This document shows, piece by piece, positions 199-60,228 of a DNA stretch of 64,000 bases. The DNA is taken from the NCBI GenBank assembly GCA_951406725.2, contig OX597814.1, positions 168,640,001 through 168,704,000 on the forward strand. The letters are read 5' to 3'. This DNA is from Octopus vulgaris (Eukaryota). The notes beneath the pieces are model-generated. The model did no database searches and was not told the DNA's origin. It saw only the letters and a program-made list of their open reading frames with translations. Both the position numbers and the translations under genes were made by a program. Within the stretch, counting starts at the first letter, position 1, and each line of letters opens with the position of its first letter.

Positions 199-732
199 GC
201 AAAACACTGCTGATTTACAAAGTAATGATTTATGCACTAGAGGAGCTATAATATATTTGTTAGTGCCATGTAAATGATCAACAAATACAAAATTAACATC
301 TATTACATGATTCAATAAATGAACAGGAATTGAGAATTTCTATTTTACAATGTTTAATGTTTAGAAATGTCTTCTCTGTTTTTCTTTTTTTTTTAATAAG
401 TTTATTTTATTGGAATTAATTTTGGAAAGAGATTGTGAGTGTACATGACTCTTGTGAACATTGTATTATATGTACATGGATAATTGAATCTATCACAATC
501 AATGAATGACATTTTTAGATAGTTTTAGATACAGTCTAGTATGTCAGTTTGATCGGCAGTTTGCTTGCCTGTGAGTTTGTTTGCTTGTTTGTTTGTTTGT
601 GTGTCCTTGTGTATGCGCCCGTGTCTGTGTGTGCGTGCGTGCGTTTTTGCAGCAGGAATGTCCCCTACGTTAGAAGCAGTACTCCGATTTCTATATCAAA
701 TATTTTCGGTTCAGGTCAGAAACTCCGTATAT

Positions 733-778
733 TTGTCACTGAGGAGACCAAACCAGGTTGAAACAACCTGTCTGACGA
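733..778 (+). ncRNA. Type I hammerhead ribozyme (minimal, Penelope/retrozyme type)
   Basis: TTGTCA-CTGAGGA-GACC aaacca GGTT-GAAA-CA acc TG-TC-TGACGA. Stem I TTGTCA/TGACGA, intact CUGANGA and GAAA core, stem II GACC/GGTT, short stem III, GUC cleavage triplet (cut after 772). Confidence 0.75.
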
Positions 779-1984
779 TCTCCTGACATTCTGAGCAAAG
801 CTATGTCTTTTCTTTTTATTATACAAGTGTCTTTCAGAAGTTTCTCAAAGACAAAATATAACAGCATTTGGCATTCCATGTTTGTATGTACATTATAAAT
901 ATACATACGTGTGTAAAACATTTTTGAACCCTTCATAAATTAAAATAGCTTCTTAAGTTTGGTGGATCCTTGAAAATAAATTGTACCGCTAATTTTTTTC
1001 TCTATTGTTTCCATCCCTAGAACATGCTTTCTGTTCTTTTGAAATTTCTGTTTCTATAACATTCCCAATGTGGGAATCTAAATGCTAGAAATAACAACGA
1101 AATTCTATCAAATCACACGCTACTACCTTACAAAAGAAAAAAAACCCTACCACTTGAAATAGCGTAGTCTGAGATTTACTATTTTTTTTTAAAGAACAAA
1201 ACTGGGTGGTTTTGGCGGGACCGTCTTTTGATCTTGTCTGTTCGATCAGTGTTGATCAGGGGCCAAAGGACAATAACAACCTCTCCTTTTCTCATTTTAG
1301 TCATGTTTTTGTCTCCCTCTCAGATTCCATCCTAAATACTCTGCCAAATTCTTCACCCCACTTCCAGTGCCACAACTGCATTCGTTTGGTCCGCCTTTCG
1401 TGTTTCTGTATTTCCTTCAACAATTTTAACTCGACTTCAAATGTATTAACTACCCCACTCCCCCATCCGCACTCATTCCACTCCTTTGGCTAAGGGAAAG
1501 GTCTAAAAGGGGAGAACCATTAGTGTGCTGTCTCTCCTCCTTATACTGACGAATCGAAAAACCAGAAACGAAAGCAAACAAACAAATAAATAAATCTATT
1601 TGAATTACAAATCTGTGATTTGGAATAATTTTATCGATTATTTTGTTCTGCAATTTCATCCGATTTATAGAATCAGTATACTTTTTTTTATGTCTTTATA
1701 AAAAAATTACTCTAAAATCTTCAGATCACACAAGGCATGACTGTATTTTCGGCAATTTTGAAAGCACTATTATTATTAGTTTCGCTTATTATGGTTTTGT
1801 TTTAGTCATTTCTACATGCAACGCTGGCCATAACGTAGCCAATGACGTTTATTGAATAAAAAAAAAAGGAAAAGAAAAAAAAAAGAAAAAAGATCATTGC
1901 TTGCTGAAAACAACTGTACTAAATTATGTTTTATGAATGAAAGACAGAATAAAATTTGTAAAAATAAATAAATGATATGGACAC

Positions 1985-9895: not shown

Positions 9896-10422
9896 TATTG
9901 GAAAAAGACATCCGGTATAGAGGAATTTAAATCGTGAATAGCGAACTAGCTGTGAAAAAATGAAAAAGGGGAAGTGAAAAATAATAAAAATAAATAAAAG
10001 AACCGCTTGTACTCGTGAAAGGTCAACCACTGTTTTGTGAGAGTATGCGAGTAATGCGACAATATAACGCTTACAATACAAGTTAGATATACATTGTCAA
10101 ACAGATTTTGTGCCCATACTGGAAAAGACATGTATAGGCAGACATATATATATATATATATATAAGCTTCGAATGTCTCGTCCGTGTTTTTTCTATCGTC
10201 TTCTAAATGTTTTACGTTCTTGTCCCAGTTTGTATTTTTCTACATATAATATATATATAATATAAGGGATATTAGCCAACTGAATATGGCTAGGGACAGG
10301 GCAGGGTGGTGGGGGTGTCACTGTTGCATTTAGCCCCAGGCGAACATCAACGTCACCAGATAGGCCGACGCCATCACGGCGTCCTCTATCTTGCAAAGGG
10401 AGATCATTCACCAAGAAGCGGA

Positions 10423-10476
10423 TACCACACACGGACCTAGGTTTCAAGGTGTATTGCCTATTATCAACGTGTGGTA
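10423..10476 (-). ncRNA. Type I hammerhead ribozyme, U3-A8 core variant (copy 1)
   Basis: Minus strand TACCACACG-TTGATAA-T AGG caataca CCT T-GAAA-CCTAGG-TC-CGTGTGTGGTA. Palindromic stem III, GUC cut between 10434 and 10433. Confidence 0.75.
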
Positions 10477-10777
10477 GGCATCGCTTCTCGATGAACGACC
10501 AACCGTGCAAGATACATATAAATATTTTCAAGTAAATACATTTACTGATTTCGAAAATCTGTTCGACAGCAATAATAATTCTCTAAATGAGATATAGACA
10601 GTGACTGCTCCATAATATAAGGGATATTAGCCAACTGAATATGGCTAGGGACAGGGCAGGGTGGTGGGGGTGTCACTGTTGCATTTAGCCCCAGGCGAAC
10701 ATCAACGTCACCAGATAGGCCGACGCCATCACGGCGTCCTCTATCTTGCAAAGGGAGATCATTCACCAAGAAGCGGA

Positions 10778-10831
10778 TACCACGCACGGACCTAGGTTTC
10801 AAGGTGTATTGCCTATTATCAACGTGTGGTA
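10778..10831 (-). ncRNA. Type I hammerhead ribozyme, U3-A8 core variant (copy 2)
   Basis: Same motif as copy 1, with stem I 3' strand CGTGCGTGGTA. Cut between 10789 and 10788. Confidence 0.75.
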
Positions 10832-10883
10832 GGCATCGCTTCTCGATGAACGACCAACCGTGCAAGATACATATAAAGATTTT

Positions 10884-10939
<56 letters not shown>

Positions 10940-11546: not shown

Positions 11547-11906
11547 CAACAATAATAATAATTCTTTCAAATTTTGGCACATTTTAAGGGGAAAGGGCAA
11601 AAATAATAATAGCAATTTCTAAAGGAAGAATCAACATAGATAATCTTTATTGATTCTGCTCTTATAATTACTGGTTTTCTTATTATTGAGAATGTGTGTG
11701 TGTGTGTGTGTGTGTGTGATGCCAACTAGTACTCTTAGTCACTTTAGTGAAGTCTATACTTCTGCCTTTCGGTTGTAAATTGCGAATAAGCCACCTTTAT
11801 AATTTATAATTTTCACTTTTACCTTTTAGGAAATCAGCGTACGAGCTCTACGGTAACACATATAACCTGACTAAACGAGCTAGCATAACCCACTAAGCAG
11901 ATGGGT

Positions 11907-13639
11907 GGTTGGATTGTGTAAATTGTTGAATGTCAGTCACTGTTTCGTTTGCACCTGCATAATCCCCGTCTACGGGAGGATTGAAGAAAGGAAGAGAGAT
12001 GGAGAATAGACGAAGTTACGCAGCGGCAACGACACAAGGAATAAATGCCAACGCCCTGGAAGTACAGGAAATAGAAATTGACACAAGAAAGAAGAAGGAA
12101 GGAAGAAAATTTATTAAAAAGAAGTGAGTCAGTCTAAAGCTGACTCCCCCAGAAGAACTGATGAACAGCGTAGCGAAGAGAACGATAGTATACAGAACGT
12201 TGTCTACGTCCTCGAACAAGATAGAGTTAGCAGCAACAGAAGAAATAGAGGAATGTCTCGAAAATGTTAAAAAATTGACCACATTCTATACACGTGGAAA
12301 AAATTATGGCTCACTGGAAGTAAGGTTTGGCAACGAAGGAGATGCCATAAACAACTCCACGGACCAGTTACGGACAACGGAATGGATACTACTTCCGACG
12401 TACTGTGGCAAACGCGTTGCTAGAGTGAGAGTTGGAAGAGTGCCCCCCGAAATCGAGGAAGAATGGCTGGTAGCAACCATAATGCACGATATGAAGGATG
12501 GGGTAGAGATCCTCAAGATAACGAGGATCTAATGGGTCAATTAGTGGAGATATGGCCTCGAAGTGACCATGCAAGTATGGTCTTTGGAAGACTTGCATAG
12601 TATAACGGAGGAAATAATACTCCCGGAAGACACCAGACTTCGAATAACAGTAGAAGGAAAATCACCAACATGCTTCCAATGCGGCAAAAAAAGGGCACAT
12701 GAAAGCAAAATGTCCCGAGAAGGAAAACGAAGAGGAGAAGAAAAGTGAAGAAAACAATACCGAAGAAGTAGTACCAATAAAAGTAGGAACCCTTCACAGT
12801 AGTAAACACGAGGAAGAGAAAGGAACAGGTGAATTCTCCCCCAGACAGTCAAAAAAGGTTAAAAGAGATTGTGACGGAAGAAAAGAGAAATAGGTGTGAA
12901 GCACCAACAGAAGCAATGGTGAAAGAAGGCACACAGAAAAAAACAGCATTACAACAGGGTGAAAGACGAAGCGTTTATAAAATCTGTTATGATGTTTCTG
13001 CACGCCCGAACAGATCAGGACGAGAGCCGAAGCAAGCAGAAGTGAAAAGGAAGAGATGTAAGTGAAAAGGAAGAGATCACGTATTCCGAAAGCAAAGAAA
13101 TACAGAAAACGATTGTTAAATATATATCGGTAATAAGAGTAAGGCTGTCGCCAAGAAAATACCCGGAATACACTAAAGGAATAGTCACAGACAAAGAGAC
13201 ATTTTTGAAATTGAGAGAGATGTATGAACTTTTCATAGACCCACTGGGGTTGAAGTCGAGTTTGACGAACTCTCACTGGTCGTGGAATTAGAAGATTTGA
13301 AACCCTTTATGAACATTTAAAAACAAGTAAAATTTGTACTTCATATTAGAAAACGAGGAAAATAGACTTAAAAAGTTTAAAGAAAACAGAGAAAAAAAAA
13401 ACGATCCAAAAAAAAGAGACTAAGAAAAAGAACGAGCTAAAAAAAGGAAAAAAAAAGAAGACTGTAAGAACGTTTAATTGTAAAAAATGAAATCACGGTT
13501 TCGTCTCGGAGCGGGGCCGAAAAAACCGTCTCATATTCATTGTAATTCATTGTAATTCATTCTTTCATATGTTTTTCTGTTCCTGCATGTTTGTGCATGT
13601 CTCCTCTGTATTCAGGTCTTGTGCCTATAATAAAGGGAA
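11907..13639 (+). mobile_element. ORF1-only non-autonomous non-LTR retroelement (HAL1-like)
   Basis: Perfect 15-bp TSD ACTAAGCAGATGGGT (11892-11906 and 13640-13654). AATAAA at 13629. Only a gag/ORF1-like frame inside, no endonuclease or RT. Confidence 0.8.
11999..13325 (+). pseudogene. L1/Tx1-type ORF1p (RRM-like region plus CCHC zinc knuckle), disrupted
   Basis: MENRRSYAAATT N-terminus; ARVRVGRVPPEIEEEWL; ITVEGKSPTCFQCGKK-GHMKAKC (CX2CX4HX4C, split by a frameshift in the A-run near 12690). Several stops. The 3' limit is approximate. Confidence 0.75.
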
Positions 13640-13650
13640 ACTAAGCAGAT

Positions 13651-13711
13651 GGGTAAGAACCACTGACGAGCATTAATGAAATGCGAAATCACTGGTGATC
13701 TGGCTATGCCC
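13651..13711 (+). ncRNA. Type I hammerhead ribozyme with extended stem I
   Basis: GGGTA agaa CCA-CTGACGA-GCAT taatgaa ATGC-GAAA-TCAC tg GTGA-TC-TGG cta TGCCC. Intact core, AUC triplet, cut after 13700. Confidence 0.8.
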
Positions 13712-13831
13712 CGGATGCTGTAGGGAGCCAGCCTCCCTTGTCAGTGCTTTCTCGTGGGTAAGAGTTCTTTTGATTCTTATTTCTAGCAATGCTGGCGCTA
13801 ACTAGTACCCTTAATTACTTTAGTTTTTAGT

Positions 13832-13908
<77 letters not shown>

Positions 13909-14025: not shown

Positions 14026-14742
14026 TAAATCTTTAAAAATGTTTTAGCCCGAAGGCCGCGGCCATGCTGGGGCACCACCGCTGAATGAGCTACACTAGTT
14101 TGTGAATCCACCTCTGATACGTGGCACTTGATCAACAAGGGAGTTCGATGCTGCTGCCCGCATCCGTGTCTCCTGTCGTGAGGTAGGTTCATCTGGGACT
14201 CCCAACAAGAAGAGATCCAGTTTAGTTTTAAAGAAACCCACATCCACACCATGTAAGTCTCTCAGGCATTTAGGGAGGATGTTAAAGAGCTGTGGTCCTC
14301 TGAAACCCAAGCTGTTGCAGTATCTGGACCTGTATTTTGATGGTGATGTTGGAATCCTTGGCACCACGCAGCGGCGCCCCGTTCTGCGGTTGGAGTAACT
14401 TTGAATGTCAAAGTTTGGGACAAGACCCTCCAGGATTTTCCAGATGTATATCACTGCATATCTCTCCCGCCTCCGCTCCAGGGAGAAGAGGTTTAATACC
14501 TTCAGTCTTTCCCAGTAGCTGACATTTTGCATTGAGACGATTTTCTTTGTGTAGCTTCTCTGAGTTGCTTCGAGTTCTGCTGTTTGTTTTATATTGTGTG
14601 GTGACCAAAGTTGGGAGCAGTAGTCCAAGCGGCTGAGGACGAATGTTTTCCATAGGACCATCAGTGTCTCCTTCTCTCTTGTTCTGAAAGTTCGGAGAAT
14701 CCATCCAGCTAGCCGTCTGCATTTTATCACCAGATTAGCAAT
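14026..14742 (-). mobile_element. 5'-truncated CR1-clade LINE (ORF2 C-terminus plus 3' tail)
   Basis: Open frame GWILRTF...SRLDYCSQLWSP...LEATQRSYTK...YWERLKVLNLFSLERRRER...FFKTKLDLFL, stop at 14095. Tail GGTGCCCCAGCATGGCCGC. Confidence 0.9.
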
Positions 14743-17815: not shown

Positions 17816-17964
17816 TCCAATGTTTGATTCCTGTGCTGGTATTTCATTGTGCTAGAAATAGCAACAAAAAGTTTGCCATGTACTATCCTAACGTCTTAAA
17901 AATAAAAGAACATTAGCTAATTTGAATTTAGTCCAAAGTACAGTGAAGGGGAAGTTAAAATTTC

Positions 17965-22259: not shown

Positions 22260-23660
22260 AAATAAATGAGAAGTATATAACGATATGTAAGTTAAATAAA
22301 ACCCTATAGTCCTGGAGAAAGATATATCTTCCTTTGCAATTGCGTGAAGCTATTATTAGGAATTTTCCAAAGAATTCTAGGTATTACTCTATTATCAACT
22401 CACACACGGTTAGGATTTGTTTTTCCAACGCGAAAAAAAATCTCTTACAAATTATCTCCTCATATAGCCTGTTAAATAGGGATACATTTACTAATACTAA
22501 CATTAATTTAGATTATACCACCTATCCCCCTAGAAAAAAAAGGTTATTGTATCTGGAGTCAATTACAACGGAATCAAGTTTATGTCAAGTAACTCTAAAA
22601 TTAAAAATTCTTTATACCAGTGTAAAATTATTTCTGATAATGAAGTATTTTTTATATAGGCAGCTCATCTTCTCAGTTATCTAAAAGAATTTCTAATCAA
22701 TACTCTACATTTAGGGATAGGAATAAACGTAACAGTACAGGGCTTATTAAATTAATTTAGTATCTAAAAGACCACAATAAACAATTTAAATTAGATTGGT
22801 TGATCCTCTCAATTTCGATACCTTATGATAAAGGCAAGGAATTTTGTCTTCTCTGTAATTCTGAGCTATTTACTCTTTACTCTTTACTCTTTTACTCTTT
22901 TACTTGTTTCAGTCATTTGACTGCGGCCATGCTGGAGCACCGCCTTTAGTCGAGCAAATCGACCCCGGGACTTATTCTTTGTAAGCCCAGTACTTATTCT
23001 ATCGGTTTCTTTTTTGCCGAACCGATTTATTTTTTTCCTAAAAATCCCCTTTTAAACATGGTTATAGAGCGTGCATACCGATGTAAACACCTTGGTTCAT
23101 ATAAGTGATATCTATTATTATATATAATTTAAACATTGATTTTCTTCTTACATTTCACATTCACTAGATATATCTTTTTCCAAGACTATAGAATTTTATG
23201 TAATTTACATATCGTTATATACTTATTTATTTGGTTTCTTTCTTTTACTCATCATCTTTCTATATGCTACCTTGGACGTTATCCATCTAACGTTTTTGTT
23301 AAAACAAACTTGATAGCGTTCAGTTAATCACTATACATGTCCATCATATTCTTTTAAAATGTCTTATTGACGAGTTTCATTTCTTCATTTCCCTGAAGAG
23401 AAGCTTACATTGTTTTACTCCATTTTATTCCTTTGGAATAATACCAGTGATATCTTCGAAACATGTGTCGGAAGTAAAAGAATTTGAAGAACACCTGCGT
23501 TTAACTCCATTTATTTATATATATTATACAAAATATTTCCCGTAAAACCGGAGTTTCTACCTTTAAAAACAAGGAGTTACAACCTTTTTACTTGTGTGAT
23601 TTTTGCTACCCTGGTAACTATTTATTTTTTCCGTGTTAATTGTTAACAAGGGAAAAATAC
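22256..23660 (+). mobile_element. 5'-truncated Penelope-like element (Naiad-like) with inverted 5' segment and HHR-bearing 3' pLTR
   Basis: IIRNFPKNSRYYSIINSHTVRICFS resembles the PLE linker at 40560 (KHFPENHRYRKIFNRRSVKLSYS). 22256-22328 is the reverse complement of 23167-23237. HHR at 23387. A SINE tail is inserted at ~22870-23025. Confidence 0.7.
23387..23475 (+). ncRNA. Type I hammerhead ribozyme
   Basis: ATTTCC-CTGAAGA-GAAG...CTTC-GAAA-CA tg TG-TC-GGAAGT. Intact core, GUC cut after 23469. Confidence 0.75.
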
Positions 23661-31973: not shown

Positions 31974-33318
31974 ATGTGTGTGTCGTGAGTTTGTGTAGTC
32001 AAATCGTAGGAGAATTGTTTGAGCCGTAAAAAGGGTGAGATGTGTGTGGTATGCTTGGGTATCGAAAAAAAAATATATATGTAACAAGTTTATTAATATC
32101 GTAACGTAGTAAGTTACATAGTTCGTCCCATATTGAAATCGAAAGGAATTTCGATAAACAGACGGTCACCATTGAAACAGACGTCAGCTCATCGAAATTT
32201 CTTTTGGTTTACAATATGGGACGAACTATGTAAACGATGTTAATAAACTCGTCTTATCGTATATTGTCTAACCCTTGTCATCTCTACTAGGCTGAATATA
32301 TAAATGCATACATGTGTGTGTCGTGAGTTTGTGTAGTGAAATCGTAGGAGAATTGTTTGAGCCGAAAAGGGTGAGATGTGTGTGTGGTATGCTTGGGTAT
32401 CGAAAACAATATATATATATGTAACAAGTTTATTAATATCGTAACGTAGTAAGTTACATAGTTCGTCCCATATTGAAATCGAAAAGAATTTCGATAAACA
32501 AACGGTCACCATTGAAACAGACGTCAGCTCATCGAAATTTCTTTTGATTTTCAATATGGGACGAACTATGTAAACGATGTTAATAAACTCGTCTTATCGA
32601 ATATTGTCTAACCTTTGTCATCTCTACTAGGCTGAATATATAAATGCATACATGTGTGTGTCGTGAGTTTGTGTAGTGAAATCGTAGGAGAATTGTTTGA
32701 GCCGAAAAGGGAGAGATGTGTGTGGGTATGCTTGGGTATCGAAGAAAATATATATGTAACAAGTTTACTAATATCGTAACGTAGTAAGTTGCATAGTTCG
32801 TCCCATATTGAAATCAGAAGGAATTTCGATAAACAGTCGGTCACCATACAACCGTCAGCTCATCGAAATTTCTTTTGATTTTCAATATGGAACGAACTAT
32901 GTAAACGATGTTAATAAACTCGTCTTATCGTATATTGTCTAACCCTTGTCATCTCTACTAGGCTGAATATATAAATGCATACATGTGTGTGTCGTGAGTT
33001 TGTGTAGTGAAATCGTAGGAGAATTGTTTGAGCCGTAAAAAGGGTGAGATGTGTGTGGTATGCTTGGGTATCGAAAAAAAAATATATATGTAACAAGTTT
33101 ATTAATATCGTAACATAGTAAGTTACACAGTTCGTCCCATATTAAAATCAGAAAGAATTTCGATAAACAGACGGTCACCATACAACCGTCAGCTCATCGA
33201 AATTTCTTTTGATTTTCAATATGGAACGAACTATGTAAACGATGTTAATAAACTCGTCTTATCGAATATCGTCTAACCTTTGTCATCTCTACTAGGCTGA
33301 ATATATAAATGCATACAT
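31974..33318. repeat. Tandem array of four 331-340-bp units, each with a long internal inverted repeat
   Basis: TCGTGAGTTTGTGTAG recurs at 31983, 32321, 32661 and 32992. Fold-back at 32087-32249 in unit 1. Confidence 0.95.
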
Positions 33319-59080: not shown

Positions 59081-60228
59081 CAGAGCTGGGTGTAAGTCCA
59101 TTAATCCGTTAATCGTTAATTAACGAAGTTAACATTTTCGTTAACAATTTGACTTTCAAGTTAACTTTGAAAATCATTATCGGACTAATTAACTTCCATT
59201 ACATTTAGCTTCCGTTAACTAAAGCCCGTTAATCCCAAAATTTCATAAAAACCGGTAAACATTTAAAAGGCCAAAAAAGCTGATTTTATGGTTTTGGCGC
59301 TTTTTAACACTTCAGTGTTTAAACCGGCCAAAATCCGTTCGTATCTAATTCCTCTACGAAATCTTTTAAAAGATAAACAAATCACGTTAGTGAATTCCCG
59401 TAGCTTTGAGATAATGTCAGGGTTTTTCTTCCACAAAGCACAGAACTGGGGAAAAAAGCAAAAGTAACTGACGTGGATGTCAACAGAGAAAATATTGACT
59501 TTCATCAAGTGGAAAAATAAATGGCAGGAAAAAAGTTGGTAAGTATTTTCGGTATGAACGCAAATAGCCGTTACGTGTGGTAGCAGGACATGCTAGAAAT
59601 AACAATCAAATCTTTCCTTTTCTTGAAAAAGAAGCCGTTTATGCGTGATTTCGATGTCACATTCGTTGAAAGCATACAAAATAACCTAGTAAAAACGCCG
59701 CGGAAAAAAACTTCGAGGTCCCCATCACCTTTTCTACCTTTCTTTTCCGGAAAAAAAGTGGCTTGCGACGAGTTTGGAGGTCAGATACATTGAATGCACC
59801 CGAAAAAAAAAAAAAACTGTGGAAAATATTATTCCACACCGAGGTACGAAATATTTAGCGAAAGAATAAAACCATGTACCGATTATATATGTATTTTAAT
59901 TAATTCAAATTAATGTAGCTCATCTTGAAAAGTGGCAAAATTTTTGTCGGTTGCCATCTGGGATAATTTTAGTAACAAATCAAACAGGTAAGATGCATTA
60001 ATAATTTCAAATTTAGTGTTCACCCATACATGCAATTTATAGGATATAAGCGATTATTTGGTGAAAATTTCGTTAAAAAGTATCCATTTTTCTGGAATTA
60101 TGAAGCAACAAAGTCGGTGGGTTATTAAACTGTAGTTACGCTTTTTTCAATAAAAGTTCACGTCAACGGATAAATAAATGATTAACAAAGTTAACTTTTT
60201 GATTATAACGAAGTTAAATTTTCGATTA
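59081..60228. mobile_element. Possible non-autonomous hAT-like element
   Basis: Starts CAGAGCTGGG with clustered GTTAAC/CGTTAA subterminal motifs at both ends. The right TIR is not found. Confidence 0.4.

Follow-up and report, generated by a model that had tools for sequence, protein, structure and literature searches.

A probable decayed solo retrozyme with a PLE-like tail, split by an ORF1-only element, in Octopus vulgaris

Retrozymes as a kind are already known from many animals, and the octopus unit described here is a further member. Metazoan retrozymes are 150–450 bp long, have a GC content below 50% and carry a type I hammerhead; the non-LTR forms are expressed as both linear and circular RNA, with Penelope-like elements (PLEs) as the proposed helper (PMC7229834). 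Retrozymes have also been described as PLE derivatives among which solo monomers are common, and many of their families are related to the pseudo-LTRs (pLTRs) of PLEs (bioRxiv 10.64898/2026.07.22.740005). The accessible parts of these two sources name no octopod host, and the supplement of PMC7229834 may list cephalopods. Our literature search, which yielded PMC8557442 alone, found no octopod hammerhead retrozyme; this does not establish that none is in print. The words "ribozyme" and "retrozyme" have 0 occurrences in the main text of the 2026 Octopus vulgaris repeat annotation, which records 31 recently active (young) PLE families in this species (PMC13282606).

Insertions of PLEs often carry a terminal "tail" of 30–40 bp, and in the Naiad/Chlamys PLEs a bias for microsatellites hides the target-site duplications (TSDs) (PMC8557442). 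For an anole PLE, reverse transcription in vitro has two internal start sites on the RNA, and the distance between them gives the tail; hammerhead cleavage is not required for this tail, and uncut RNA is used (PMC11167929).

The locus lies within a 64-kb window of Octopus vulgaris DNA, the window being the whole stretch that was analysed, between a (TG)13 microsatellite at 11693–11718 and a (TCTA)19 microsatellite at 13832–13908. The left half of a plus-strand unit (186 nt, 11721–11906) closes with the left target-site copy of an insertion. The right half (142 nt, 13655–13796, +) is followed by a 28-nt terminal repeat, or tail, at 13797–13824 (+), in which a second copy of the unit begins. The left copy of this repeat is the opening 28 nt of the unit itself (11721–11748, +); the two copies are identical at 24 of 28 positions, and a 7-nt spacer (13825–13831) separates the end of the unit from the (TCTA)19 tract. 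Removing 11907–13654 leaves 356 nt, i.e., 328 + 28. This is the arrangement that the first-pass annotation had proposed, and a direct check of the sequence bears out both the coordinates and the 328-nt unit with its 28-nt redundancy between microsatellites. The unit has 42% GC, no ORF of its own and no LTR pair. A comparison of the flanks of this one insertion reveals no target duplication common to both outer sides of the 328-nt unit, and no further copy of the unit or of the insert was found within the 64-kb window.

At the right junction (13825–13836), 7 nt that echo the end of the element are followed by TCTAT, which also occurs at 11753–11757, shortly beyond the left copy of the 28-nt repeat. 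Judged from the letters, microhomology between TCTAT at this junction and the (TCTA)n target is possible. A short motif of the unit (12–20 nt, 13777–13788) recurs on the opposite strand at 1083–1094, 17850–17861 and 59591–59602, making 4 occurrences against 0.66 expected in the window. The three other sites resemble a dispersed repeat, and homology with them was rejected, since the similarity is 12–20 nt long, falls on the other strand and goes no further.

The 328-nt unit shows no similarity to a 355-nt family in the same window (best E 9.9), as had been claimed. That family forms a tandem unit of ~1.8 copies, 99% identical, at 10257–10898 between (TA)n runs; it holds a minimal hammerhead-like core near 10545 and looks much younger than the 328-nt unit. 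Further features lie elsewhere in the window. A second canonical-looking type I hammerhead with a 6-bp stem I is located at 725–790 (+), its core at 739. A 340-bp tandem repeat (31974–33318; 4 copies, 94% matches) has long internal inverted repeats and gives no match to the hammerhead descriptor. A loose descriptor match with a long stem II loop at 23393–23470 is probably due to chance. The region 14340–14730 (−) may be the 3' part of a reverse transcriptase gene of CR1/L2 type, which it resembles.

The unit contains a type I hammerhead at 13651–13711 (+), with a full core, an internal loop in stem I and a near-palindromic stem III. The core elements are CUGACGA at 13663–13669 and GAAA at 13685–13688, every conserved core base is present, and the predicted cut site is after C13700 on the plus strand. 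Distal stem I pairs 13651–13655 with 13707–13711 (one G-U pair) and proximal stem I has 3 bp; stem II has 4–5 bp, depending on a fifth (U-A) pair, and a near-palindromic 12-mer holds stem III, with its 4 bp and tetraloop. Our own strict type I descriptor matches once in the window and in 0 of 300 block shuffles, and the type I motif is not a chance product. Rfam gives no hammerhead match here at either gathering or E-value thresholds. Descriptor and sequence agree with the first-pass annotation on a canonical hammerhead with an internal loop in stem I. Its 7-nt loop II holds with the fifth pair open; ViennaRNA closes this pair, leaving 5 nt.

In ViennaRNA predictions, which have neither tertiary terms nor a known hammerhead as positive control, the monomer prefers a competing helix over the active fold: the active fold lies 5.9 kcal/mol above the ensemble in isolation, 7.0–7.5 kcal/mol above it in the pre-insertion context and 11.7–11.9 kcal/mol in the present context. 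For the dimer, the active fold is predicted at −34.6 kcal/mol, compared with −35.1 for the best dimer fold and −31.8 for two monomers. These predicted energies would be consistent with a dimeric mode of action, as reported for the type I hammerheads of metazoans (PMC4209133; PMC6155905). Retrozyme circles have been described as highly self-paired, whereas folding of the circular unit, as represented by this diverged octopus copy, is at the level of shuffled sequences (z −0.13, 60 shuffles).

Other copies were sought in contigs of four public runs, aligned to 11719–13830 at 80% likeness. Runs X1 and X2 are guessed to be DNA and the kind of run X3 is not given; the three come under two organism labels. 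They contribute 1549, 1912 and 1463 aligned contigs, respectively, over unit and insert, most of them below 95% identity and with tens of distinct contigs per position. From these numbers and this divergence, both the unit and the insert are many-copy families. The fourth run (X19, guessed to be RNA) gives 17 contigs, which are no evidence on expression either way. The summed contig depth is higher over 13707–13830 than over the left half, a measure that cannot rank the parts. No contig in X1–X3 bridges the whole locus. Pattern scans for other copies gave 0 matches in metagenome_contigs (two scans) and 0 in genome_contigs; a looser pattern matched 13 times in viral_contigs, which we take to be chance or unrelated.

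The joints within these contigs reveal how the parts of the unit are connected in other copies. Each joint is carried by 1–3 contigs per run, and those given here are the best supported among the joints listed. A joint from 11837 to 13660 is present in X1, X2 and X3 with 63 letters on the shorter side, in X1 with 35 homologous letters between, so a copy without the insert exists. At least four further joints connect the left half with the right half. In the other direction, the joints 13794–11739, 13795–11734, 13812–11763 and 13813–11753 go back from the right end to the left end in all three runs, among the joints listed; 13794–11739 and 13813–11753 have 47–57 letters on the shorter side in X1–X3. 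Another such joint, 13727–11720, is found in two runs. Contigs also continue past 13824 (42, 63 and 44 in X1–X3), where their consensus agrees with 11749–11778 at 22, 26 and 25 of 30 positions, counted by eye. With left-to-right junctions that lack the insert and right-to-left junctions both present, the unit closes on itself at ~330 nt. One opposite-strand joint per run resembles the inverted ends of PLEs. The copies differ in length: among the loose ends listed, many have ~10 extra letters near 13745, and one copy is ~38 nt shorter between 11838 and 13658. Thus, 328 nt is the length of this copy, and the family varies around it. No tandem of two complete units, each with its hammerhead, was seen in these contigs, which are too short to show one.

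These junctions also bear on the nature of the 28-nt repeat. In other copies the repeat continues into the unit and the right end runs back into left-end sequence, so the ends are not fixed and the repeat belongs to the element and did not arise by duplication of the target. An ordinary target-site duplication would account for a direct repeat at both ends of the unit, but with the repeat belonging to the family sequence such an origin is hardly credible. Measured against what is known of PLE insertions, this single insertion has a tail of 28 nt as opposed to 30–40 bp, microsatellite flanks and no TSD.

In the first-pass annotation the repeat was taken as the trace of a reverse transcriptase that ran slightly more than one lap around a circular monomer RNA. 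The head-to-tail continuity of other copies, in which the redundancy is the start of the next unit, speaks for this reading, and circular monomers have been shown for the retrozymes of coral, mussel and axolotl (PMC7229834). However, a linear tandem transcript gives an identical junction. The repeat lies ~96 nt downstream of the predicted cut and so does not mark the ligation junction, and mismatches between its copies at 4 of 28 positions make the event old. Moreover, the in vitro tail of the anole PLE arises from internal priming on uncut RNA (PMC11167929); with the tail explained in this way, the repeat is no proof of a circular template. A circular template is possible and not needed. In its strict form the reading is rather doubtful; it is compatible with the explanation that we favour, from which it differs in the template alone.

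The octopus unit resembles the animal non-LTR retrozymes in its type I hammerhead, its non-coding unit, its many copies and its head-to-tail junctions, and at 328 nt it compares with mussel units of 350–390 bp (PMC7229834; bioRxiv 10.64898/2026.07.22.740005). It differs from them in consisting, at this locus, of one monomer followed by a tail of 28 nt, in lacking a TSD and in being split by another element. Its stem III has 4 bp, whereas 1–2 bp are usual in animal retrozymes. With the pseudo-LTRs of EN+ PLEs it shares a short terminal extension, microsatellite flanks, the absence of a visible TSD, a hammerhead and inverted junctions; unlike them, it has no RT or GIY-YIG ORF, its tail is 28 nt long and no partner PLE was identified for it. 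By the definitions of Li et al. (bioRxiv 10.64898/2026.07.22.740005), a locus consisting of a monomer plus 28 nt fits the "solo" and not the "active" class.

We suggest that the locus is an old, decayed copy of a solo non-LTR retrozyme of an octopod, inserted by the reverse transcriptase and endonuclease machinery of a PLE, with a probability of roughly 0.7. The retrozyme-like nature of the unit, already proposed in the first pass, is supported by its type I motif, size, GC content, many copies and head-to-tail junctions. The anatomy of the locus (the unit, its 28-nt tail, the microsatellites, the missing TSD and the inverted joint) fits insertion through PLE machinery. Tandem source loci would be transcribed, and the resulting multimers would be cleaved into unit-length RNA by the hammerhead, either as a monomer or as a dimer formed via the palindromic stem III. 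A nick at or near a microsatellite would be made by a PLE protein, which would begin reverse transcription slightly inside the next unit on an RNA that is either multimeric or circular. Priming inside the next unit would leave the 28-nt tail and no TSD. Later, a 1733-bp ORF1-only element would have split the copy, leaving a perfect 15-bp duplication. This copy has a single hammerhead, is interrupted by the insert and has diverged from most related copies; as a retrozyme it is probably no longer active.

The same PLE signatures (a terminal repeat of about tail size, flanking microsatellites, an inverted joint and the lack of a TSD) would also be expected if the locus were the solo pseudo-LTR and tail of an autonomous PLE, i.e., a 5'-truncated insertion with no independent retrozyme cycle. 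In Xenopus, 24 of 57 retrozyme families match known TEs, and 21 of the 22 TEs are PLEs (bioRxiv 10.64898/2026.07.22.740005), so this reading overlaps with the retrozyme reading. However, the junctions seen in both directions in other copies close the unit at ~330 nt, and among the loose ends listed within the unit none resembles a run into an ORF. A search of 11721–13824 found no ORF with RT and GIY-YIG. The hammerheads of metazoan PLEs are mostly minimal, the pLTR form lacking helix III (PMC4209133), whereas the octopus motif is canonical with a 4-bp stem III. We therefore regard a PLE pseudo-LTR as unlikely. Less likely still is a dispersed remnant of a satellite DNA, spread by recombination at the DNA level and carrying the hammerhead as an inactive relic. 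The weak predicted folding would suit such a relic, as would the Xenopus dimers, 8 of 9 of which gave no cleavage product when tested (bioRxiv 10.64898/2026.07.22.740005), but a lone, short-tailed unit flanked by two unlike microsatellites suits an insertion event, and all conserved bases of the hammerhead core have been kept.

The element that splits this retrozyme copy is 1733 bp long (11907–13639, +) and belongs to a many-copy family. It is bounded by an exact 15-bp target-site duplication, with a left copy at 11892–11906 (+) and a right copy at 13640–13654 (+), the latter holding the first bases of hammerhead stem I. When the 2.1-kb stretch was shuffled 200 times, no exact repeat exceeded 14 nt (0 of 200 reach 15). 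The 3' end of the insert consists of AATAAA (13629–13634) and 5 nt, with no poly(A). A decayed ORF1-like gene at 11999–13290 (+; 3' limit approximate) encodes two predicted RRM-like domains, a CCHC knuckle and a charged tail, a layout that we take to be linked to Tx1/L1 ORF1. Three in-frame stops interrupt its first 245 codons, and frameshifts follow. No RT was found within the insert. One contig of run X3 has a copy of the insert with an internal deletion, joining 11990 to 13282.

A full phmmer scan retrieves 393 relatives of the insert protein at E up to 0.001, whereas word-index protein searches gave no relative and Pfam, run on six ORF pieces of the insert, nothing useful. Ten relatives were looked up; the eight that are named are all from octopods (Octopus bimaculoides, O. 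sinensis, O. vulgaris and Argonauta hians). A Pfam zinc-knuckle family is present in 6 of 20 relatives scanned, and the C-terminal match is weak (E 0.67). The predicted model of the first 245 residues (pLDDT 83) matches RRM proteins: Foldseek finds tandem RRMs (best E 1.3e-5), and against single RRMs the Z-score reaches 9.2 (rmsd 2.0, 73 aligned). For the parent clade of the insert, the Atlas gives no more than a lead, a ZCCHC3-like cluster at 0.90.

From these features, the insert reads as a broken ORF1-only, HAL1-like element. HAL1 (half-L1) is non-autonomous and encodes only an ORF1-type RNA-binding protein (Kojima 2018, PMC5753468). The insert is like HAL1 in coding for an ORF1-type protein alone, without RT, in its many copies and in its 15-bp TSD. 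It is unlike HAL1 in its octopod ORF1 family, its predicted RRM-RRM-CCHC layout and the lack of poly(A) in this copy. It is thus HAL1-like in action and not classed as HAL1, as this copy has no poly(A) and a partner was not found.

Because the insertion falls at the 5' edge of stem I, the ribozyme is preserved downstream of the insert. A hairpin at 11888–11906, closed by ACCC/GGGT and consisting of the left copy of the 15-bp duplication and the 4 nt before it, is predicted directly upstream of the hammerhead and can sequester the 5' strand of stem I. An insert-free copy in run X1 keeps both hairpin arms, with a shorter and different loop, and the sequence hints at a conserved switch. It can be speculated that the insert is a target-specific, Tx1-derived parasite that settles at the 5' edge of stem I and keeps the ribozyme whole behind it, a reading that we consider very improbable. 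Its insertion would do away with the upstream hairpin, which can otherwise block stem I; the host ribozyme would cut the 3' end of the tail-less element transcript 61 nt downstream. If true, this would be three-tier parasitism in octopods (LINE, half-LINE and a retrozyme on a PLE).

Taken alone, this decayed copy changes little. The unit likely extends hammerhead retrozymes to octopods, and a monomer with a PLE-sized tail lends small support to the idea that PLEs mobilise the retrozymes of animals.
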